Source: an uncultured Candidatus Saccharibacteria bacterium
Lineage (GTDB): Bacteria > Patescibacteriota > Minisyncoccia > Phycocordibacterales > GWA1-40-21
Direction of reading: 5' to 3'
DNA length: 34,313 nucleotides
Assembly: GCA_964587695.1 (NCBI GenBank)
Contig: CAZPLP010000002.1
Span: 1 to 34,313, forward strand
Shown one piece after another: positions 5,031-31,297 of the stretch. A program made the translations under genes and the position numbers. Under the pieces are notes generated by a model, which had not been told where the DNA came from, searched no databases, and saw only the letters and a list, made by a program, of their open reading frames with translations. Each line of letters opens with the position of its first letter. Within the stretch, counting starts at the first letter, position 1.

Positions 5031-7574
5031 ATGGCAAAATTTATTCATTTACATACTCATTCCCACTATTCTTTGCTCAATGCACTGCCTCAATTAAAAG
5101 AACTTATTAAAACAGTGAAGGATTTGGGCATGACATCTATAGCACTTACAGATGCTGGAAATATGTATGGGACTATTGAATTTTATCAAGATTGTAAAAA
5201 TAACGGGATAAAACCAATAATTGGAGTAGATTTTTACGTCGCCTCACGAACACGAAATGATAAACAGGGAGGAATAGATAATCGTAGAACCCGTTTAGTA
5301 CTCTTGGCAAAAAATGAAATTGGTTATAAAAATCTTATAAAACTTGTCACAGATTCATTTTTTGAGGGATTTTATTACAAGCCAAGGATAGACCATGAAC
5401 TTATAGAGAAATATTCTGAGGGGCTCGTTTGTATTATACCCCATTTTTCTGGAGAAACTTCGTACTCATTAAAAAACGGCGATACAGAAAAAGCTATAAA
5501 TGTTATAGCTTGGTATAAGAAAATCTTTAAAAATGATTTTTTTATAGAAATAACACATCATCCAGAAATAGAAGGACAAATTGAGCTTAAAGAAAAAATA
5601 ATAGAATTAGCAAAGGAAACCAAAACACCTCTTGTAGCAGCACATGATGTTTATTATTTACATCCGGAGGATAAAGCAGCTCGCGACACTCTTGTTCAAG
5701 TAAATTCTCATTCAGATTTTATAGATCGTGAACAAAAAGACAGCATTGATGATTTTTCTCTTATCTCATCAGAGACAGCAGAGCAATATTTCAAAGACAC
5801 ACCAGAAGCATTGGAAAACACTATAAAAATTGCTGAAATGTGTAATGTTGAAATTACACTTGGAAAAGATGCTTGGGTTTTTCCTGAATATTTTGTAGAA
5901 AGTGGTTTATCACATGATGAAGAATTAAAAAGGCTTGCATATCTTGGGATAGCAAAAAGAAATCTTACACATTCAAAAGAAGTAATAGACAGAATTGAAT
6001 ATGAACTTAAAATTATTAAAGATAAAAAATATTCAAAGTATTTTTTAGTTGTATCTGATCTTTTGCGCTTTGCTACTGAAAATGGAATTTATTCAAACAT
6101 AAGAGGTTCTGTTGCGGGATCTATTGTTACCTATCTTACTGGTATTACAAAAGTAAATCCGCTTGAATATAAACTTCCTTTTGAAAGATTTTTAAATCCG
6201 GAAAGACCTTCTGCCCCTGATATCGACATGGACTTTGCCGATAATCGAAGAGATGATGTTATAAATTATACTAAACAAAAATACGGAAAAGAAAACGTCG
6301 CACAAATCGGAACTTTTGGCACCATGATGGCTCGTGGTGCTTGTCGTGATGTTGCAAGAGCAATGGGTTATCCACTTCCTCTTGCAGACAAAATTGCCAA
6401 ACTTATTCCAATGGGTGCACAAGGAAAACCCATGACTCTAAAAAAAGCACTTAGGGATGTATCCGAACTCAAAGACATGTATGACAATAGTAAAGATACG
6501 AAAACAATTATAGATATGGCACAAAAAATAGAAGGTTGTGCAAGACACATTTCGGTTCATGCCGCTGGAGTTGTTATTGCTCCTTCACCTCTTATAAACT
6601 ATGTTCCGCTACAATATGATACGAAAGGTGAAAATAAAATCATTACTCAATATGATATGGATTCTGTTGGAGAAGATGGCGTTGGACTTTTAAAATTTGA
6701 TTTTCTTGGAATTAAAAATCTTTCAATTCTTGCTGAAGCTGTTCGTCGCGTAAAAGCTATCGAAAATATTGATATAGATATCGAGGCAATTCCACTAGAT
6801 GATAAACTCACTTATGAACTTTTAACAAAAGGAGAAACAACTGGACTTTTTCAACTAAACGGCCAGGGGATGACTAAATCTTTAAAAGAATTAAAACCAA
6901 CAAATGTTCACGATATAAATGTTATGGTCGCACTTTATAGGCCCGGACCAATGGACAACATACAAGAATATATTGCAAGAAAGCATGGTCTTAAAAAAAC
7001 TTCTTACCTCCACCCAAAAATGAAAGACTTTCTTGATACAACTTTTGGAGTACTTGTTTATCAGGATGATCTCTTAATGACTGCTATAGAAGTTGCTGGA
7101 TATACTTGGGGTGAAGTTGATAAATTTAGAAAAGCTATTGGAAAAAAGATACCGGAGGAAATGGCAAAGCAACATGTAAAATTCGTTGAGGGTTGTATTA
7201 AACATGGAGGTATGACAAGTAGTAAAGCAGAATCACTATGGAATTTGTTTGAACCATTTCAAGGTTATGGTTTCAATAAGGCACATGCAGCAAGTTATGG
7301 ACGCGTCGCATATCAAACTGCATATATGAAAGCAAACTTTCCTGCTATTTATATGTCTGCCGTTCTTACTGCAGATTCCGGAGACGTAGAAAAAATTGGT
7401 GAATTTATGGCCGATTGTAAAAAAATGGGAATTCCAGTTTTGCCTCCGTCTGTTAATGAAAGTTACAGAGATTTCACGACTGTTAAAACTCCAGGTGCAG
7501 ATGTACATTCAGCTGGAATTGATCGCGACAAAATCCGGTTTGGACTTACAACAATAAAAAACTTTGGCGAATAG
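5031..7574 (+). CDS. dnaE: DNA polymerase III alpha subunit, PHP plus polymerase core; ends at an in-frame TAG
   Basis: PHP motif HLHTHSHYSLL, PDIDMDF, and the palm/fingers blocks (GLLKFDFLG, YRPGPM, FNKAHAASY). The frame stops at TAG 7572..7574 in the middle of the conserved IKNFGE-x-IxxxIIEER region. Confidence 0.85.
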   Translation: MAKFIHLHTHSHYSLLNALPQLKELIKTVKDLGMTSIALTDAGNMYGTIEFYQDCKNNGIKPIIGVDFYVASRTRNDKQGGIDNRRTRLVLLAKNEIGYKNLIKLVTDSFFEGFYYKPRIDHELIEKYSEGLVCIIPHFSGETSYSLKNGDTEKAINVIAWYKKIFKNDFFIEITHHPEIEGQIELKEKIIELAKETKTPLVAAHDVYYLHPEDKAARDTLVQVNSHSDFIDREQKDSIDDFSLISSETAEQYFKDTPEALENTIKIAEMCNVEITLGKDAWVFPEYFVESGLSHDEELKRLAYLGIAKRNLTHSKEVIDRIEYELKIIKDKKYSKYFLVVSDLLRFATENGIYSNIRGSVAGSIVTYLTGITKVNPLEYKLPFERFLNPERPSAPDIDMDFADNRRDDVINYTKQKYGKENVAQIGTFGTMMARGACRDVARAMGYPLPLADKIAKLIPMGAQGKPMTLKKALRDVSELKDMYDNSKDTKTIIDMAQKIEGCARHISVHAAGVVIAPSPLINYVPLQYDTKGENKIITQYDMDSVGEDGVGLLKFDFLGIKNLSILAEAVRRVKAIENIDIDIEAIPLDDKLTYELLTKGETTGLFQLNGQGMTKSLKELKPTNVHDINVMVALYRPGPMDNIQEYIARKHGLKKTSYLHPKMKDFLDTTFGVLVYQDDLLMTAIEVAGYTWGEVDKFRKAIGKKIPEEMAKQHVKFVEGCIKHGGMTSSKAESLWNLFEPFQGYGFNKAHAASYGRVAYQTAYMKANFPAIYMSAVLTADSGDVEKIGEFMADCKKMGIPVLPPSVNESYRDFTTVKTPGADVHSAGIDRDKIRFGLTTIKNFGE

Positions 7575-8303
7575 ATTTCTAGAGTAATAATTGAAGAAAG
7601 AAAGAAAAATGGAAAGTTTACTTCCCTTTCAAATTTTCTTGAGAGAATTATGGACAGAAATTTAAACAAAAGATCTCTTGAGCCTCTTATTAAAACTGGT
7701 GCACTAGATGAGTTTGGTGATCGTGGTGTCATGCTCGCAAATTCTGAAAATCTTTTAAAATTTAATAAGGAGCTCAGTAAAAAAGATCAAAATCAAGATT
7801 CACTTTTCGGAATCTTTGATGGTGTATCTGCAGATACAGGAAAAATACAAGAAGCTTTCACACTTGAGCCAGCACCAAATGCAACAATGAAAGATAAACT
7901 CAACTGGGAAAAAGAATTGCTCGGAGTATATATTTCTGGACATCCTTTGGATAAATACAGAAATGCTTTGGATAAACAAAAAATAAGCATACAAAGAATT
8001 AAAAATTTACCAAATACTGAATCAGCCGAAGCAGAAGCAATAAAATCACAAATTGATGCTGGTCAACCAATCGGCGGAATCATCGAGGAGGTTCGAGAAA
8101 TAATGACTAAAAATAACGAGCCAATGGCATTTATAAAGCTTGCCGATTTTACTGGCTCAATAGATGCCGTAGTCTTTCCAAAAACTTATGCACAAATGAA
8201 AGATTCTATTAAACCCGACAAATGTATTGCAGCTATTTGTAAAGTTTCAGAAAGAAACGGAGAAATGAGCTTGATTATTGAGAGGTTGAAAGTACTAGAG
8301 TAA
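7575..8303 (+). CDS. dnaE: DNA polymerase III alpha, C-terminal continuation (HhH plus OB fold), in the same frame as 5031..7574; first ATG at 7650
   Basis: The codons directly after the TAG read ISRVIIEERKKNGKFTSLSNFLERIMDRNLNKRSLEPLIKTGALDEFG, which is the canonical DnaE segment following IKGVGE. Confidence 0.7.
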   Translation: MSRVIIEERKKNGKFTSLSNFLERIMDRNLNKRSLEPLIKTGALDEFGDRGVMLANSENLLKFNKELSKKDQNQDSLFGIFDGVSADTGKIQEAFTLEPAPNATMKDKLNWEKELLGVYISGHPLDKYRNALDKQKISIQRIKNLPNTESAEAEAIKSQIDAGQPIGGIIEEVREIMTKNNEPMAFIKLADFTGSIDAVVFPKTYAQMKDSIKPDKCIAAICKVSERNGEMSLIIERLKVLE

Positions 8304-8335
8304 AATCTTAAATATTGTCCTAGATTTTGTTAAGC

Positions 8336-8364
8336 TTGACTTTTGTTTATCGCAAGTATATTAT
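8336..8364 (+). promoter_or_regulatory. Near-consensus sigma70-like promoter with no protein-coding gene downstream on the plus strand
   Basis: TTGACT (8336..8341), a 17-nt spacer, then TATTAT (8359..8364). Confidence 0.35.
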
Positions 8365-8377
8365 AACACTATAAAGT

Positions 8378-8421
8378 GCCGAAAGGCTCCGAGAAACCCC
8401 GCAGAAATGTGGGGTTTCGAG
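8378..8421. terminator. Two GAAA-loop hairpins between the convergent dnaE and mazF-like genes (terminator and/or small RNA body)
   Basis: gcc-gaaa-ggc (8378..8387). An 11-bp stem at 8393..8403 / 8408..8418 with loop gaaa, followed by gagtttct. Confidence 0.5.
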
Positions 8422-8424
8422 TTT

Positions 8425-8826
8425 CTATAGGAAAGATTTTAATTTCTCTTTTATCTCTAATACTCTCTGATATTCTAATTCATATAATTTTCTTTTTAAT
8501 CTTTTAACACTTATCAATTTCATTTGTGCCAGTATAGCTGAAACTTCTTTATTATTTACATCAGTATAATTAAAATAAAAATCAATTTTTTTCTGTTTTG
8601 TAGATAAAGGAATCGCCCAAAACATTTTGTTGTTAAACTTTTTAATTACTAAAATTGGCCTGGAATAATTATCCCCGCTTCCATTCTGTTCAAAACCGAT
8701 ATTTTCACCAAGATTACTCATCCAAACTTCTCCTTCTTTGGGAAATTTATCTGGTTCATCGACAGAAGAATCTATTATCTTTTTTAAATTATTCCATTTA
8801 TCAAAATCTTTTTGCATGATAAACAT
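8425..8826 (-). CDS. MazF/PemK-fold toxin-like protein
   Basis: GEVWMSNLGENIGFEQNGSGDNYSRPILVIKK, AIPLSTKQKK and SAILAQMKLISVKRL align block by block with E. coli MazF (GDLIWVDFDPTKGSEQAGHRPAVVLS, CVPCTTQSKG, ALADQVKSIAWRAR). The track start at 8853 is a TTG overlapping the RT. The ATG at 8826 (MFIMQKDFDKW) or at 8817 is more likely. Confidence 0.75.
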   Translation of the reverse strand: MFIMQKDFDKWNNLKKIIDSSVDEPDKFPKEGEVWMSNLGENIGFEQNGSGDNYSRPILVIKKFNNKMFWAIPLSTKQKKIDFYFNYTDVNNKEVSAILAQMKLISVKRLKRKLYELEYQRVLEIKEKLKSFL

Positions 8827-8845
8827 TCTATCATCTACATACCCA

Positions 8846-9838
8846 CTATCCAAGTAAATTTAAAATTTTATTTTTCAATTTAATCGCATTTCCATGACTC
8901 AACATTCCCAAATACGATTGCACGGTTTCCTCTTTATCACTCTCCTTTAATTTCCTAAACATCTTTCTTTTTGTCGCTGTTCGCAATACTCTATGTTTTG
9001 GAAAATGCACCCAGCCGAGAATATCAACTCCCGAAGCCAGCGTTTTGAGAAATAGTTTATTCGGATGCAATGTTAATTTAAGTTTAATACAAAGAAAATC
9101 ACTAATTTTTAATATTGCATTCTCAAGCCAAGCTTTATCCTGTGAAAGAAAAACGAAATCATCAGCATATCTAATATAATATTTTGCTTTCAATTTATGT
9201 TTTACAAATTGGTCAAATTCATTCATATAAATATTTACCAAAAGCTGAGATGTAAGATTTCCAAGAGGCAAACCCTTTCCTTTTTCAGTAGAATAAAAAC
9301 TTTGTATGATTTCGGTTAAAACAGACATTATATCTTTATCATATATATAATTATTTAATATTTTCAAAAGAATTTCTTGGTCTATTGAAGCAAAAAACTT
9401 TCTAATGTCGCACTTTAAAACCCAAACTGTTTTTGTATTATTTTTAGATACTTTATTTGAAAAATATCTGAATCTATCCATCGCTTTATGTGTCCCCTTT
9501 CCAACCCTGCAAGAATACGAATCGGCAATAAATGTTTTATCAAAAAATGGATACAGTTTTCTGTATAAAGCATGGTGTAATAGTCTGTCTCTCACTTTTG
9601 CCTTATGTATATTTCTTGGCTTTGGGTCAGAAATATTAAATGCTTCATATAAAGAATGTTTATAGGTTTTATTTTTTAATTCCGTGTGAAGTGAAATAAT
9701 ATTGCTCATCAAATGCCTTTGAAACTCCTCTACATCTTTGCGATCTTTTTTACCTACAACAAATTCTCTCCACGCTTCTAGCAGATTTTCCATTTCAATG
9801 ATATCTTGATAATTATTATTAAATTGAATTTTGGACAT
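8846..9838 (-). CDS. DGR-type reverse transcriptase
   Basis: YADD catalytic box (9158..9169), the SYSCRVGKGTHKA block and the LPLGNLTSQLLVNIY (xGxxxSQ) motif. Its 330-aa size fits DGR RTs. It is adjacent to the TR/VR pair. Confidence 0.9.
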   Translation of the reverse strand: MSKIQFNNNYQDIIEMENLLEAWREFVVGKKDRKDVEEFQRHLMSNIISLHTELKNKTYKHSLYEAFNISDPKPRNIHKAKVRDRLLHHALYRKLYPFFDKTFIADSYSCRVGKGTHKAMDRFRYFSNKVSKNNTKTVWVLKCDIRKFFASIDQEILLKILNNYIYDKDIMSVLTEIIQSFYSTEKGKGLPLGNLTSQLLVNIYMNEFDQFVKHKLKAKYYIRYADDFVFLSQDKAWLENAILKISDFLCIKLKLTLHPNKLFLKTLASGVDILGWVHFPKHRVLRTATKRKMFRKLKESDKEETVQSYLGMLSHGNAIKLKNKILNLLG

Positions 9839-9859
9839 AATTATTACAACATAAAATAT

Positions 9860-10256
9860 ATGACTTTGATGCCCCCCCCCCGAAAAGAAACTGCTACCAC
9901 TACTACAAAAAGTAAAAACTGCTTATATTCTTTGGTATGAATATTATCAGATTTTGCCAAAACCCCACAGATATTCTCTAGGTAATAGAATTGATACTTT
10001 GTTTATAGAAATAATAGAAGCGATTTCTGTTGCAAGTTTCCTTCCCAAAGAAGAAAAGCGTTCTTATATTTCCATTGCCATCAGAAAACTTGATACACTA
10101 AAAATCTTGATGATGGTTTTGTGGGAAACAAAATCTTTAGATAATAAAAAGTATATTGCTCTATCACTCCAAACAGACGATATTGGAAAAATGCTCGGAG
10201 GTTGGAATGGACAGATATTAAAACAAAACTCTCCCGCAAAAGCAGGAGAGAAATGA
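9860..10256 (+). CDS. avd: Avd-like accessory variability determinant (four-helix bundle), with the frame interrupted at a C10 tract
   Basis: ATG 9860 (or 9869), then C10, then the remaining 125 codons (124 sense codons plus TGA) in a different frame. One fewer C gives MTLMPPPEKKLLPLLQKVKTAYILWYEYYQILPKPHRYSLGNRID...IGKMLGGWNGQILKQNSPAKAGEK (131 aa). The C-terminus resembles Bordetella phage bAvd GRILGSWIARVNRKGQAGK. As assembled, only a TTG at 9954 opens the frame. Confidence 0.75.
9872..9881. repeat. Homopolymeric C10 tract
   Basis: Ten consecutive C read directly from the sequence, in an otherwise AT-rich region, immediately after ATG 9869..9871. Confidence 0.95.
10215..10250 (-). terminator. 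Hairpin plus U-run immediately downstream of the TR on the minus strand, antisense to the avd 3' end
   Basis: The minus strand reads ctctcc-t-gc tttt gc-g-ggagag (10250..10229), followed by ttttgtttt. Confidence 0.45.
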
Positions 10257-10261
10257 TGTGA

Positions 10262-10398
10262 TTTGCGAGCGAAAAAGAAGCGATTGTTGTCATTCCACTT
10301 GTTGTCGTCGTTCCCATTGTTGTTGTTCAACCACGAATCCGAATCGTTCCTGTTACAGTTGAAAAGCTTGAGGTTGCCATCACGGTCGCGTATTGTTT
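10262..10398 (-). repeat. DGR template repeat (TR)
   Basis: 137 nt homologous to 10750..10886. In the VR frame it reads TIRDRDGNLKLFNCNRNDSDSWLNNNNGNDDNKWNDNNRFFFARK, rich in AAY codons and preceded by an in-frame TAA. Confidence 0.9.
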
Positions 10399-10746
10399 AG
10401 AATCCTTCCTTACCACCACCCATTGAATGCACCACAAGGGTACTTCATTTTTCTAGCACGGAATACCGTGAAGAAAAATTGGTCGCTCTCAAGGTTGTAT
10501 CGAATTTGATATATTAAATATCCTAGATTCTAAACCAAGTAACTTCATTTTTTGAAGGACTACATATAACACTCTATTCAAAATCTTAATCGTGAATAAT
10601 CTCGATATATGGATACTAATTTCGGTAGCAAAAAATCGTAATCGTTTGCATAGTCACCTACTCTCAACAATATTTTAGCACGAATTAAGTATTAAGGAAT
10701 AAGAAAATAAGGGCTAGATTTAAGAATCTAAATTATAAGTTCTAAT

Positions 10747-12687
10747 TTACTTGCGAGCGAAAAAGAAGCGATAGTTGTCATTCCACATGTGGCCGTCGTT
10801 CCCACGGCTGCTGTACAACCACGAAGCCGAATCGTTCCTGTCACAGCTGAAAAGCTTGAGGTAGCCAAAACGGTCGCGTATAGCTTCCATTGCAATATTT
10901 GTCCAATTACCACTTTTTTCATAATTTAAACGGATTGTTGGAGCAAGTTTAGCTGGAACAAGTTCAAAATTATTTTCTTTTGCCTTTTCTTTAATATCTG
11001 CATAAGTATGAACTTCTGTATCACCAAAAAGTTCACCAACTGAAATAGATACAATTTCATAGGAATTATTTAGTTTTTCTTTCCAGTCAACTTTAGTCAA
11101 CATATCTTTTGAATAATCACTAATTTTATAACCCTCTTCTTCAAGTTTTTTAATTGCTATTTTATCAGAAGTGATTTCTTTATCAGGAATAATTTCTTTC
11201 AAAAAAACTTTTTGTTCTGGAAATTTGGAATAAATGTGTTCAATATTTTTTGGTAAAGATTTTAGAACTTTTGGATTGAATTCTCCAATGTATGCTTTAG
11301 TATTTTTATTTATTTCTTTCTCAGAATAAGCGATTTGATTTGGTTCACATTCAATTACAACAGGGGCATCTTCTTTGGGATTTCTTTGTGAAATGATTTC
11401 TTCAATTCTCGGATCTCTTTGATAACCGAAACCTTCTATTTTAGAATCTATTTCATATATGAACTTGAGCTCGTCTTTTGTTAGTTCTGGTTTTAGATAT
11501 ATTTTTTCTTTAGTTTCTTTGTCTTCTTTAAAGCTTTTCTTGTAAATAGCAGTCATGTCTTTCATATCTTTCGATATCTTCTGATATTTCTCTTTTCCCG
11601 GAAGTTCACTCATCTTCTTTTCAGCAATTTCTGTCATATTTCCTTCGAGATTTTGTTGATTATCTGCAACACCTCTTGTTTCGCCAATCTGATCTCCTTG
11701 CATACGAATAGCGATTCTTGGAATAGAAGGTTTGTTTTGTTTGTCCAATGTATAGTAAACATAGAAGTCTCCCCCTTTAAGATGAGTTTCTGCCGTGCCA
11801 TAACCTTTTGTACACCAAGCTACACCTTTATTTTGTAAAGATGACCATAGAGCTGTTGGGTCTGTTCCTTTCCCGTATTTAATCCATTTACCTTCTGTGA
11901 TTTCTCTCATCTCTGGGGTAATTTCTCCAGATTGTCTTATTGCTTCAGAATATTGTTTGGCAAAAGAAATCTTAGCGAAGTTTGCTACTTTTTCTTTAGT
12001 GAGCAATTCATTTTTAGGAATATCTCCATTTGCAGATTCTTGTTGAGCTTCTTGAAGATTTTTGAGCATCTCTGCATCTTTGTCGGCTTCAATCATTTGT
12101 TCAATATATGCGAGAGCTCCTCTGTCTATATCGGGAAATAGTTTTATGCTTCCTTCCGATCTTTTTGTGAATTCACCTTTATCTTTGTCATAATCTCCTA
12201 AATCTAAAACATTTCTGAAAGCATAATAACGAAACCACACAGGATATGGTTCGTTTGCATCAGAAAGATATGAAATCCAATTGTCTAGGGATTTTTCCAA
12301 ATCGGTGACTGCGATATCTCCCCTTTGATCCATTTGTTCTTCCTCATAGCGTGCTTCAATACCCATATCCCTAGCGGCTCTTTCTTCAACTCTTCTTGCA
12401 CCTTCGGCCAGGGCTTCTTTATTTCCTCGGACATATTTGTTCATGACCATTTCCCTGAGCAAAGACAAAGCTCGTGGACGAGTTTCTGACCCGTGAGTTT
12501 TCTTTGGTTGTTCTTTATTTGGATCTAGAACTAGCTTTTCTAGACGATCTAAATAATTTTTTATTTTAGCTTCTGGATCATTAGGCACTTTCTCGCCTGT
12601 GCGTTCTTCTGTACGCTCGGCTGATGCTTCCACTTCTGGAGCATTGTGTAGGTCGTATTTCTTTTTGAGGAAGTCGAAGTTTTCCAT
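10747..12687 (-). CDS. DGR target protein (646 aa) with a C-terminal variable, C-type-lectin-like end (...RFFFARK)
   Basis: Long ATG-initiated ORF whose 3' end is the VR. The N-terminus is hydrophilic, with no signal peptide or TM segment visible. The N-terminal ~570 aa are not recognised. Confidence 0.85.
   Translation of the reverse strand: MENFDFLKKKYDLHNAPEVEASAERTEERTGEKVPNDPEAKIKNYLDRLEKLVLDPNKEQPKKTHGSETRPRALSLLREMVMNKYVRGNKEALAEGARRVEERAARDMGIEARYEEEQMDQRGDIAVTDLEKSLDNWISYLSDANEPYPVWFRYYAFRNVLDLGDYDKDKGEFTKRSEGSIKLFPDIDRGALAYIEQMIEADKDAEMLKNLQEAQQESANGDIPKNELLTKEKVANFAKISFAKQYSEAIRQSGEITPEMREITEGKWIKYGKGTDPTALWSSLQNKGVAWCTKGYGTAETHLKGGDFYVYYTLDKQNKPSIPRIAIRMQGDQIGETRGVADNQQNLEGNMTEIAEKKMSELPGKEKYQKISKDMKDMTAIYKKSFKEDKETKEKIYLKPELTKDELKFIYEIDSKIEGFGYQRDPRIEEIISQRNPKEDAPVVIECEPNQIAYSEKEINKNTKAYIGEFNPKVLKSLPKNIEHIYSKFPEQKVFLKEIIPDKEITSDKIAIKKLEEEGYKISDYSKDMLTKVDWKEKLNNSYEIVSISVGELFGDTEVHTYADIKEKAKENNFELVPAKLAPTIRLNYEKSGNWTNIAMEAIRDRFGYLKLFSCDRNDSASWLYSSRGNDGHMWNDNYRFFFARK
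10750..10886 (-). repeat. DGR variable repeat (VR), the last 46 codons of the target gene
   Basis: It differs from the TR at 18 positions. Of these, 17 are sites where the TR has A on the coding strand. Confidence 0.9.
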
Positions 12688-12783
12688 GGGTTTATAGTAG
12701 CAAAATTAATTGTTTAATAAAAGGTTAAATAAATGTCCTATTCAGCCATGATTAGATTGATACTGGTTGATTTTTAATCTTAT

Positions 12784-29905: not shown

Positions 29906-31297
29906 TTACAAACTCAAAGTTGCTATATCTTTTTCAAACTGTAAAGCTCTTTTTAATACAGATGATCCATAACCATAATACATAGAATTTGTAAGTTTAC
30001 TTCCACTCAAACTTAATCCTCCATAATATTTTGAAGCTGAACAAGACCAAATATCATTTTTCTTTGTAAAAGCTGTTTTACATCTTGTTTGATTATCTTT
30101 AAGTAATACTGCAGATGCAGTAAAAGAGTCCAAATTATTAAATGGTGAAGGATAAAATACTCCAATAATACTTGAGACTCTTTTCGCTATCCCGTCCCAG
30201 GTAAGCGGCATAAACTGAGCTGGTCCAATAGCACCACCGTGACCACCATCACTACAAATAGCACATGAAACTGGTGATGTATTAGGATTTAAGCCAAGAT
30301 TGCTCATTATAGATAAATAATACGGTTTTTGTGTCTCGGACATTATTGTCTCACCTCTAACACAATAATTAGTTGATACTAAAATAACTTGATTGTATGT
30401 GCACTTACCTATATTTTTACCAATCGTATTATCAACGGCAGATTCTTGAAAAAGAACAGCGAGGACTAGCGCAGAACTAATACCAACTGTACTTTCATAA
30501 GGTTGTATTAATTTTAATGCATCACCAAAAGATATTTCTATACCACCAGCTGTTCTATAAAGTTTATTTCTAATCTGTGTTTGTAATTTAATTTTATCTG
30601 CAATGGCTTTTTGGTATAAAGCTTCTTGCCCTTTTGAAATTGTGAGAACATCTTGTTTTTCTTTCTTCAAATTTTCGGCTTGTGCTTTTGCCTTTTCTTG
30701 TTCAAATTTCAATTTTTCTTGAGCGGTTTGTTGATCTTGCAAAGCTTTCTTTTCTTTTTCGGAAGTTTGTTTTACACCCATGAGTTCATCTGTTAATTGT
30801 TTTAGTTTTACGTTAATAGATGCATAATTATCTGTATCAATAAAAAAGTTTGATAAATTTTCGCTAGATAACAGGACTTCAACAATTGAATTATCTTCTA
30901 TGGCGAATGTATCTCTTAACATTTTGCTAATAGATTTTTTTATATCATCCATTCTATTTGAAAGTTGCCCAATATACTGAGTTTTTACTACAACGCTATC
31001 ACCAAGTTGTTTAATTTTTACAGTCTTTGCTTTTATATCAAGCAGTGTCTTATTAATATTTGCGGTTAAATCAGCTATACCAGTCTTAAGTGTGGCTGAT
31101 TGTTTTTGAGTATTTACCAGGCTTACATTTAATGCTGCTTTATCTTTTTCACACTGATCATTTATTGCTTGTAATTCTTGGTCACTTTTATTATCCAAAT
31201 TTGAATCATCACAAGTAACAGCCTCTGCAAATACAGGGGATATAAAAAATAGTATAAACAAGAACAATAAAAATATATTTCTAATCTTTAAAAGCAC
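29906..31297 (-). CDS. Secreted coiled-coil protein with a C-terminal lytic transglycosylase (SLT)-like domain; GTG start
   Basis: Signal peptide (IFLLFLFILFFISPVFA), a long Q/K/E-rich coiled coil, then LFQESAVD (candidate catalytic Glu) and GPAQFMPLTW. Confidence 0.6.
   Translation of the reverse strand: MLLKIRNIFLLFLFILFFISPVFAEAVTCDDSNLDNKSDQELQAINDQCEKDKAALNVSLVNTQKQSATLKTGIADLTANINKTLLDIKAKTVKIKQLGDSVVVKTQYIGQLSNRMDDIKKSISKMLRDTFAIEDNSIVEVLLSSENLSNFFIDTDNYASINVKLKQLTDELMGVKQTSEKEKKALQDQQTAQEKLKFEQEKAKAQAENLKKEKQDVLTISKGQEALYQKAIADKIKLQTQIRNKLYRTAGGIEISFGDALKLIQPYESTVGISSALVLAVLFQESAVDNTIGKNIGKCTYNQVILVSTNYCVRGETIMSETQKPYYLSIMSNLGLNPNTSPVSCAICSDGGHGGAIGPAQFMPLTWDGIAKRVSSIIGVFYPSPFNNLDSFTASAVLLKDNQTRCKTAFTKKNDIWSCSASKYYGGLSLSGSKLTNSMYYGYGSSVLKRALQFEKDIATLSL

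Follow-up and report, generated by a model that had tools for sequence, protein, structure and literature searches.

The stretch of DNA analysed here, which we call the window, is a 34,313-nt piece of contig CAZPLP010000002.1 (assembly GCA_964587695.1) from an uncultured Candidatus Saccharibacteria bacterium, and the element in question is a small gene of the MazF/PemK toxin family that lies between a diversity-generating retroelement (DGR) and dnaE. In the list of open reading frames (ORFs), a minus-strand frame at 8425..8853 directly follows the gene for the DGR reverse transcriptase (RT) at 8846..9838, while a candidate small RNA (sRNA) gene with its own promoter runs towards it on the opposite strand (Table 1). 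An earlier sequence-only reading correctly saw this same-strand ORF directly downstream of the RT, and proposed that it encodes a MazF/PemK-fold toxin which is coupled to the RT and has no visible antitoxin.

The first of these proposals holds: the protein belongs to the MazF/PemK fold and keeps the catalytic Arg and Ser/Thr, as Pfam, profile-against-PDB and structure searches agree. The Pfam family PemK_toxin (PF02452) matches with 34.7 bits, against a curated cut-off of 23.1 bits, over its entire profile (1-109 of 109), and PHROG 9567 ('MazF-like growth inhibitor') matches at 2e-15; a phmmer search of the PDB with a single sequence of the family gave no match, and neither NCBIfam nor PADLOC holds a model for this protein. 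When 34 members of the family were aligned into a profile, the PDB search found Bacillus subtilis EndoA/MazF over the full length at E=3.5e-6, followed at lower ranks by the MazF proteins of Staphylococcus aureus, E. coli and Mycobacterium tuberculosis and by Kid. An AlphaFold2 model computed on the same alignment (pLDDT 84.2, pTM 0.75) shows a β-barrel flanked by an N-terminal helix (residues 2-17) and by another helix at the C-terminus. Among its best 50 Foldseek matches in the PDB, 49 are MazF, MoxT (PemK) or YdcE, with the MazF matches at E ~1e-6, probability 1.00 and a target-normalised TM of 0.66-0.78; the only other one, at rank 44, is the type III toxin CptN. R53 is invariant in the 34 members and residue 72 is always S or T, and in the alignment of the hidden Markov model to 4mdx R53 and S72 fall on the catalytic R25 and T48 of B. 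subtilis MazF, which are equivalent to R29 and T52 of the E. coli protein. The protein looks like an active endoribonuclease. W8, N9 and K12 are invariant as well and lie in the N-terminal helix, which is specific to this MazF family.

The family is large. More than 1000 relatives were found when 5.8 billion proteins were searched. Nearly all of them measure 129-130 aa, begin with MQKDF or MKDF and come from assemblies of Patescibacteria, or Candidate Phyla Radiation (CPR) bacteria, and those listed are 67-88% identical. Because of these lengths and N-termini the start codon of mazF is placed at the ATG at 8817, giving 130 aa, instead of the ATG at 8826 or the TTG at 8853 that had been considered before, the latter of which would overlap the RT gene. 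With the start at 8817 the two genes do not overlap, and the ATG stands 28 nt past the RT stop codon.

A promoter lies in front of mazF. In the window TGATAGAAT precedes the ATG by 7 nt, and the -35 element of the predicted promoter overlaps the RT stop codon. We compared 160 homologous loci, 80 from species-representative genomes and 80 from metagenomes, and in most of them the motif TGnTAnAAT ends 6-7 nt before the ATG, with TAnnnT at -16..-9 in 92 of 135 loci. A -10 element so close to the start codon means that the mazF mRNA is probably leaderless or nearly so, and with a promoter of its own mazF does not need read-through from the RT, although such read-through is possible.

On the other side of the gene, about 95 nt 3' of the mazF stop codon are conserved among the compared loci even though the proteins are only 40-85% identical. 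On the strand opposite to mazF, this block has a -35 element TTGAC, a spacer of about 17 nt and an extended -10 element TG-n-TATAcT, and about 7 nt past the -10 an RNA begins with the layout ACAAAGUGCC-GAAA-GGCUCCGA-(10-bp hairpin)-CGAGUUU. In the promoter profile T at -33 reaches 90%, TG at -14/-13 about 70%, and the TATAcT at -11..-6 has 71-91% per position except the C with 44%; both the -35 and the -10 are present in 71 of 77 unique sequences. A consensus scan of the window independently found this promoter, at 8336-8364(+), as well as a site resembling a terminator, at 8393-8418(+).

The RNA structure is supported on several measures. In 31 sequences the two-helix structure is 94.9% paired, with compensatory changes at 10 of 13 pairs; none of 500 shuffles matches it on any measure, and it collapses in slid controls. 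The RNA of the window folds at -24.2 kcal/mol (z=-4.8), its complement at -18.9. The two strands also differ in their mismatches, since the helices, read on the antisense strand, contain 21 G·U pairs, whereas A·C mismatches, which would be G·U on the mazF-sense strand, number just 2. Of 71 distinct sequences, 59 have a loop of the GNRA or UNCG type on the first helix (P1) when the antisense strand is read, and 0 when the other strand is read. A structured sRNA is thus under selection on the strand antisense to mazF.

To count this RNA we used two covariance models, R1 for the main sRNA subfamily and R2 for the RNA of a divergent mazF subfamily, which were built apart, as a joint MAFFT alignment misplaced P1 and the second helix, P2. 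The R2-type RNA (alignment A4) has the layout of R1 in another sequence, ACAAAUGGC-UUCG-GCC followed by a GNRA-capped hairpin. R1 gives a full-length match on the antisense strand, directly adjoining the mazF stop codon, in the window, in 71 of the 80 genome loci and in 43 metagenome loci, and R2 brings 35 further loci; among the loci with sequence downstream of mazF, 75 of 78 from genomes and 74 of 76 from metagenomes have an R1 or R2 RNA that abuts the stop codon. The whole genome of the window yields a single R1 match, at 8370-8427. Across 151 other Patescibacteria genomes R1 matches at five places: in two cases it abuts a mazF homologue, in a third it faces, at a distance of about 130 nt, a mazF that has decayed, in a fourth the ORF opposite is not a MazF gene, and the fifth match is weak. 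A scan of 8200-8900 at E<=10 found no matching Rfam 15 family, the best chance match scoring 22 bits while gathering scores are 37-191.

Some further observations concern the RNA and its surroundings. In the decayed case (L208, G069:C1:34136-34577) mazF carries four stop codons, whereas the convergent sRNA about 130 nt beyond still scores 41.7 bits, a pattern expected if an antitoxin outlives its toxin. R1-like sRNAs also occur away from mazF (L118:7829-7887(+), L211:1501-1557(+) and L016:5266-5323(-)): one is convergent with a 118-aa non-MazF ORF, one with a hydrophobic 119-aa ORF, and the third lies upstream of a gene read from its sequence alone as NYN/LabA-like. The scaffold may partner other toxins too. 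In five loci (L003, L007, L008, L011 and L022) a hairpin with a T-run, GCGAAATTTT...AAAATCTCGCTTTTTT, stands on the mazF-sense strand about 100-150 nt past the stop codon and beyond the sRNA promoter. It could be the true terminator of the mazF mRNA, in which case the 3'-untranslated region (3' UTR) of that mRNA spans the whole sRNA gene.

A protein antitoxin was looked for at the same loci. Clustering of neighbouring ORFs showed that no ORF family recurs beside mazF in the 160 loci and that the neighbours are highly variable; the commonest, IF-2, occurs in only 8 loci and never nearer than about 1 kb to mazF. The assembly of the window (435 kb, 77% complete) contains one PemK match and no match to MazE (PF04014). 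A type II MazEF operon was accordingly rejected, there being no adjacent MazE/PemI, AbrB or ribbon-helix-helix (RHH) type small protein. The earlier remark that no small MazE-like ORF lies on either side, with the RT upstream and the convergent dnaE downstream, is therefore borne out and, as regards PF04014, extends to the 77% complete assembly. The broader remark that no antitoxin is visible stands for proteins but not beyond them, because a conserved convergent promoter and a structured sRNA follow the stop codon.

The relation of mazF to the DGR can be read from the closest relative, L001, in which MazF is 85% and DnaE 80% identical. The order there is thrS(-), mazF(+), sRNA, dnaE(-), and no DGR is present. 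By blastn, L001 2842-3005 corresponds to window 12943-12781, the thrS leader, and L001 3009-6757 to window 8841-5036. These matches flank 8842-12780 and define a clean 3.94-kb insertion or deletion (indel) that comprises the target gene, variable repeat (VR), template repeat (TR), avd and RT, for which L001 holds about 10 nt; mazF, its -10 box and its sRNA all fall outside it.

Co-occurrence tells the same. In a sample of 401 Patescibacteria genomes, RT matches occur in 110 and mazF-family matches in 51 (13%), the mazF family having 96 matches in total and up to 7 copies per genome. Besides that of the window, 16 genomes hold both, and among the matches listed none has them within 10 kb of each other. 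The 29 nearest RT homologues are 55-69% identical to the RT of the window, and with 1.5 kb fetched on each side none of them carries mazF. Conversely, an RT lies within 6 kb of mazF in 4 of the 80 genome loci and in 0-1 of the 80 metagenome loci (L174 is ambiguous), so that about 97% of the 160 mazF loci are not near a DGR. As the DGR is a separate 3.9-kb indel, the adjacency of RT and mazF is probably a juxtaposition and not a functional operon. Functional coupling to the DGR, which the sequence-only reading had proposed together with a check on close RT homologues, is not supported, since the homologues lack the downstream gene and the gene occurs independently elsewhere. A DGR accessory gene was also rejected as a candidate: mazF does not co-occur with RT, avd and TR in these samples and is present at the same locus in L001, where the DGR is absent. 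As to the other suggestions made before, an unrelated orphan toxin is right in so far as the gene is unrelated to the DGR, but it is not an orphan, for the candidate sRNA at 8336-8421 accompanies it, and the idea of an addiction module is possible but unproven.

Table 1. Features of the window, with the placement of the four other modules found at DGRs
Feature	Position	Strand	Remarks
mazF-family gene, 130 aa	8425..8817	-	stop codon 8425-8427; N-terminal helix, then MazF barrel
mazF promoter TGGATA-16-TAGAAT with TG (extended -10)	8825..8852	-	consensus scan
sRNA promoter TTGACT-17-TATTAT	8336..8364	+	-35 at 8336-8341, -10 at 8359-8364; consensus scan
candidate RNA antitoxin, ~55 nt, two hairpins	8371..8427	+	predicted start ~8371
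sRNA 5' tail AUAAAGU; linker UCCGA between P1 and P2	within 8371..8427	+	
sRNA P1	8378-8380 / 8385-8387	+	GAAA loop
sRNA P2	8393-8402 / 8409-8418	+	
sRNA U-rich tail		+	its last letters are complementary to the mazF stop codon 8425-8427
DGR cassette	8842..12780	-	absent at the same spot in L001
RT	8846-9838	-	
avd	~9860-10256	+	
TR	10263-10398		
VR	10751-10886		
target gene	10747-12687	-	
dnaE	5031..8303	+	convergent with mazF; backbone neighbour also in L001 and L067
module in L033			after RT, as in the window
module in L048	region 5778-8210 of L048		between VR-bearing target gene and avd-TR-RT
module in L072	region 4496-7304 of L072		between VR-bearing target gene and avd-TR-RT
module in L073			just upstream of the target gene

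Taking these results together, we consider it probable that 8336-8852 is an autonomous MazF-sRNA cassette resembling a toxin-antitoxin (TA) system, and that the DGR is a separate indel beside it. We infer that MazF is toxic and that the sRNA is its antitoxin. In this scheme, which is built on the features of the sequence, the extended -10 promoter would drive an mRNA, probably without a leader, that encodes a MazF-family endoribonuclease with an intact catalytic core, and the strong convergent promoter would drive an RNA of about 55 nt with two hairpins that ends at the mazF stop codon. The sRNA would act as the antitoxin most likely by base-pairing to the mazF mRNA, whose 3' UTR would be complementary to it, after which the duplex would be degraded or the message destabilised, like a type I system with 3' overlap. 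The cassette would be patchy and mobile in Patescibacteria and here a resident of the thrS/dnaE interval; the DGR would have arrived with the thrS leader on one side of it and the mazF promoter on the other, or would have been lost from that place in L001.

Several points weigh against this scheme. The overlap of the sRNA with the 3' end of the mazF mRNA is assumed; a precise loss of the DGR in L001, instead of its gain in the window, is possible; and 4 of the 160 other modules adjoin DGR cassettes or lie inside them where about 0.36 would be expected. In addition, the single-stranded ACAAAG and UCCGAG of the RNA are conserved beyond what a purely cis-acting antisense RNA needs, which hints at recognition by a protein.

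The last point leads to the alternative that the sRNA neutralises MazF not by antisense pairing but by binding the protein directly, as a pseudo-substrate or decoy in the manner of type III systems. The 5' segment ACAAAG, which holds an ACA-type MazF motif, and the linker UCCGAG are near-invariant across both RNA subfamilies, and the hairpins are capped by GNRA or UUCG tetraloops, which are taken to stabilise hairpins and not to start antisense pairing. The presence of CptN among the Foldseek matches fits too, and in the model the N-terminal helix with W8, N9 and K12 could be an RNA-binding surface. Yet the RNA has neither the tandem repeats nor the upstream position known from ToxIN and CptIN, and the convergent geometry abutting the stop codon is kept nearly everywhere, even in Campylobacter where the RNA is unrelated, which is what a cis-antisense mechanism predicts. 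Direct binding is thus a tentative alternative to which we give some weight, but as the mode of the sRNA it is less likely than antisense pairing.

The excess of modules near DGRs has to be considered separately, for it could mean that the module is kept beside DGRs as an addiction or stabilisation cassette, or that module and DGR belong together in a single island of defence or variability, so that the adjacency of RT and mazF would be functional at the level of the locus and not biochemically. The VR/TR pairs confirm a real DGR beside each of the four modules (L033, L048, L072 and L073), and all four modules are co-directional with it. By our own rough Poisson estimate (about 0.45 RT per Mb, a window of ±2.5 kb, 160 loci), four cases have a p of about 5e-4, or about 3e-3 if the 96 matches from 401 genomes are added. 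The adjacency also arose at least three to four separate times, since the identities of MazF and RT do not co-vary: compared with the window, L073 has an RT identity of 64% and a MazF identity of 42%, while L048 has 34% and 66%, respectively. The DGRs of L048 and L072, where the module sits within the cassette, are unrelated, and the sRNA promoter there fires against the DGR operon.

In L033 the history itself can be followed. A 75-nt direct repeat (5929-6003 and 6501-6575, 96% identical and 572 nt apart) brackets the module; the first copy begins at the RT 3' end and reaches the mazF ATG, while the second stands in front of ileS. The duplication thus comprises the end of the RT gene together with the intergenic region and an ATG that now serves as start codon for both mazF and ileS. 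The module was hence inserted beside a pre-existing RT, the reverse of the history of the window, and descent of the RT-mazF unit of both loci from a common ancestor was rejected, given a 75-nt duplication in L033 versus a DGR indel in the window. Flanking repeats of 16-77 nt occur in 12 of 146 testable loci, which fits a mobile cassette of about 0.5 kb and suggests that it inserts with a long, variable target duplication. The mazF gene is also carried by contigs binned as Saprospiraceae, Ignavibacteriaceae, Agrobacterium and Flavobacteriales (L009, L040, L062 and L066), with 50-74% identity to the CPR protein; they are either mis-binned CPR contigs or the result of recent horizontal transfer.

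Against selective retention beside DGRs stand the large majority of modules far from any DGR, the 29 closest DGRs of which none carries one, the absence of an RT near any of the 96 family matches, the metagenome replicate with at most one case, and L001, which keeps the module without a DGR. Moreover, DGR and module are both accessory and may simply share permissive intergenic sites. What remains is a weak, facultative enrichment near DGRs, compatible with shared permissive sites or variable islands, and a stabilising (addiction) role behind it is less likely; we regard retention of this kind as improbable. Equally doubtful to us is the stronger form, in which DGR loci repeatedly take up MazF-sRNA cassettes, after the RT or between the variable target gene and avd, and the cassettes serve there as selfish, linked stabilisers or regulators. 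If it were true, they might for example make the loss of a DGR costly or tie MazF expression to DGR transcription, and CPR bacteria would possess a class of facultative DGR-associated module that has so far gone unrecognised.

Two further explanations fare worse. The 3' element might be a bidirectional terminator or a stability element of the 3' UTR, and the protein a non-toxic housekeeping RNase, for P2 with the U-rich tail scores as a terminator and both strands can form hairpins. This is very unlikely in view of the full -35/TG/-10 promoter at a fixed distance in 71 of 77 loci, the strand asymmetry in favour of the antisense strand, the sRNA kept beside a decayed mazF in one locus, and the abundant independent transcript that is its Campylobacter counterpart; the patchy, multi-copy distribution is likewise unlike that of a housekeeping gene. 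Finally, that MazF is a DGR accessory enzyme which processes the TR RNA, as also suggested by the sequence-only reading, or aids mutagenic retrohoming is hardly credible, as it has only position in its favour (28 nt after the RT on the same strand, and the module inside two other DGR cassettes) and is opposed by the conserved promoter of mazF, the failed co-occurrence test, the varying placement relative to the DGR parts among five linked loci and the 85% identical gene kept in the syntenic L001 without a DGR.

The neighbouring genes of the window show two peculiarities. The avd gene is divergent from the RT, on the strand opposite to TR, RT and target gene, and the same is found by tblastn in 26 of the 29 nearest RT homologues (L083-L111), being the norm for this DGR clade; the avd ORF of the window matches the Avd profile only from position 21, and so is truncated or frameshifted at its 5' end. 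The dnaE gene is split into two ORFs, 5031-7574 and 7650-8303, while in L001 it is one uninterrupted ORF of 1079 aa, and the split could be due to an in-frame stop, a sequencing error or recoding.

For the biology of DGRs, it follows that this MazF gene is not to be counted among the accessory factors, and the window shows neatly how a complete DGR cassette (target, VR, TR, avd, RT) can behave as a 3.9-kb indel between two housekeeping genes. The locus belongs to a large MazF family, with its more than 1000 proteins, which is partnered by a convergent sRNA and not by a protein, and for this sRNA, which lacks an Rfam family, only one experimentally observed counterpart was found, C. jejuni CJpv3. 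If the RNA is indeed the antitoxin, MazF joins the few enzyme-type toxins that are controlled by RNA, and TA surveys that consider protein pairs only under-count the TA systems of CPR bacteria.

The nearest comparison is provided by relatives outside the CPR. Proteins with 30-39% identity and the same N-terminal motif are encoded on plasmids of Campylobacter, Helicobacter and Nitratiruptor, and in the CJIE4 prophages of C. jejuni a mazF relative lies between the large terminase and portal genes; none of these relatives has an annotated antitoxin. One of them is pVir0047 (CJJ81176_pVir0047) of C. jejuni 81-176, with 39% identity over 104 aa (E=5e-21). By differential RNA-seq the mRNA of this 405-nt gene has its transcription start site (TSS) at 30608, and a far stronger antisense TSS lies at 31119 (step height 16164 vs 28), by which the 77-nt sRNA CJpv3 (31119→31043) is defined; a Northern blot detected this sRNA as well (Dugar et al. 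2013, PMC3656092, Tables S5, S12). Comparison of the published coordinates shows that CJpv3 ends about 5 nt past the pVir0047 stop codon. The two loci thus share a homologous MazF-family protein with an N-terminal FDxWNxxKK motif, the lack of an annotated protein antitoxin and a convergent sRNA with its own strong promoter. They differ in that CJpv3, with three hairpins in its 77 nt, is unrelated in sequence and fold, and R1 and R2 both fail to match the pVir locus (L206); furthermore the pVir0047 mRNA has a 26-nt leader whereas that of the window is probably leaderless, the host belongs to another phylum and the copy is on a plasmid. A type I pair cjpT/cjrA was reportedly described by Shen et al. 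in 2016 (Mol Microbiol 101:909); it is possibly pVir0047/CJpv3, but CjrA could be CJpv2 instead of CJpv3. Two articles (PMC7826846, PMC10470494) cite a type I system, cjrA/cjpT, as reported on pVir.

With the type II systems MazEF and PemIK (Kis-Kid), the window shares the toxin family, the fold and the catalytic Arg with Thr/Ser, but it has no MazE or PemI upstream, nor have the 160 loci; its partner is an RNA gene, and its family has an extra N-terminal helix of 25 residues. The type III systems ToxIN, CptIN and AbiQ/antiQ likewise join an endoRNase of MazF/Kid-like fold to an RNA, in their case an array upstream of the toxin, while the partner in the window is a single convergent sRNA with its own promoter and Tandem Repeats Finder detected no tandem repeats in 8200-9000. 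The arrangement matches that of the type I pairs txpA/RatA, bsrG/SR4 and bsrE/SR5 of B. subtilis, whose convergent RNA antitoxins overlap the 3' ends of the toxin genes: toxin gene and sRNA converge, each from its own promoter, and there is no protein antitoxin. Their toxins, however, are short hydrophobic membrane peptides, in contrast to the soluble MazF-fold endoribonuclease of 130 aa here, and for the window we infer the mRNA overlap. As for the DGR accessory genes, avd and those with an HRDC domain, mazF resembles them in adjoining the RT on the same strand, and differs from them in having its own promoter and its own partner RNA and in persisting without the DGR.

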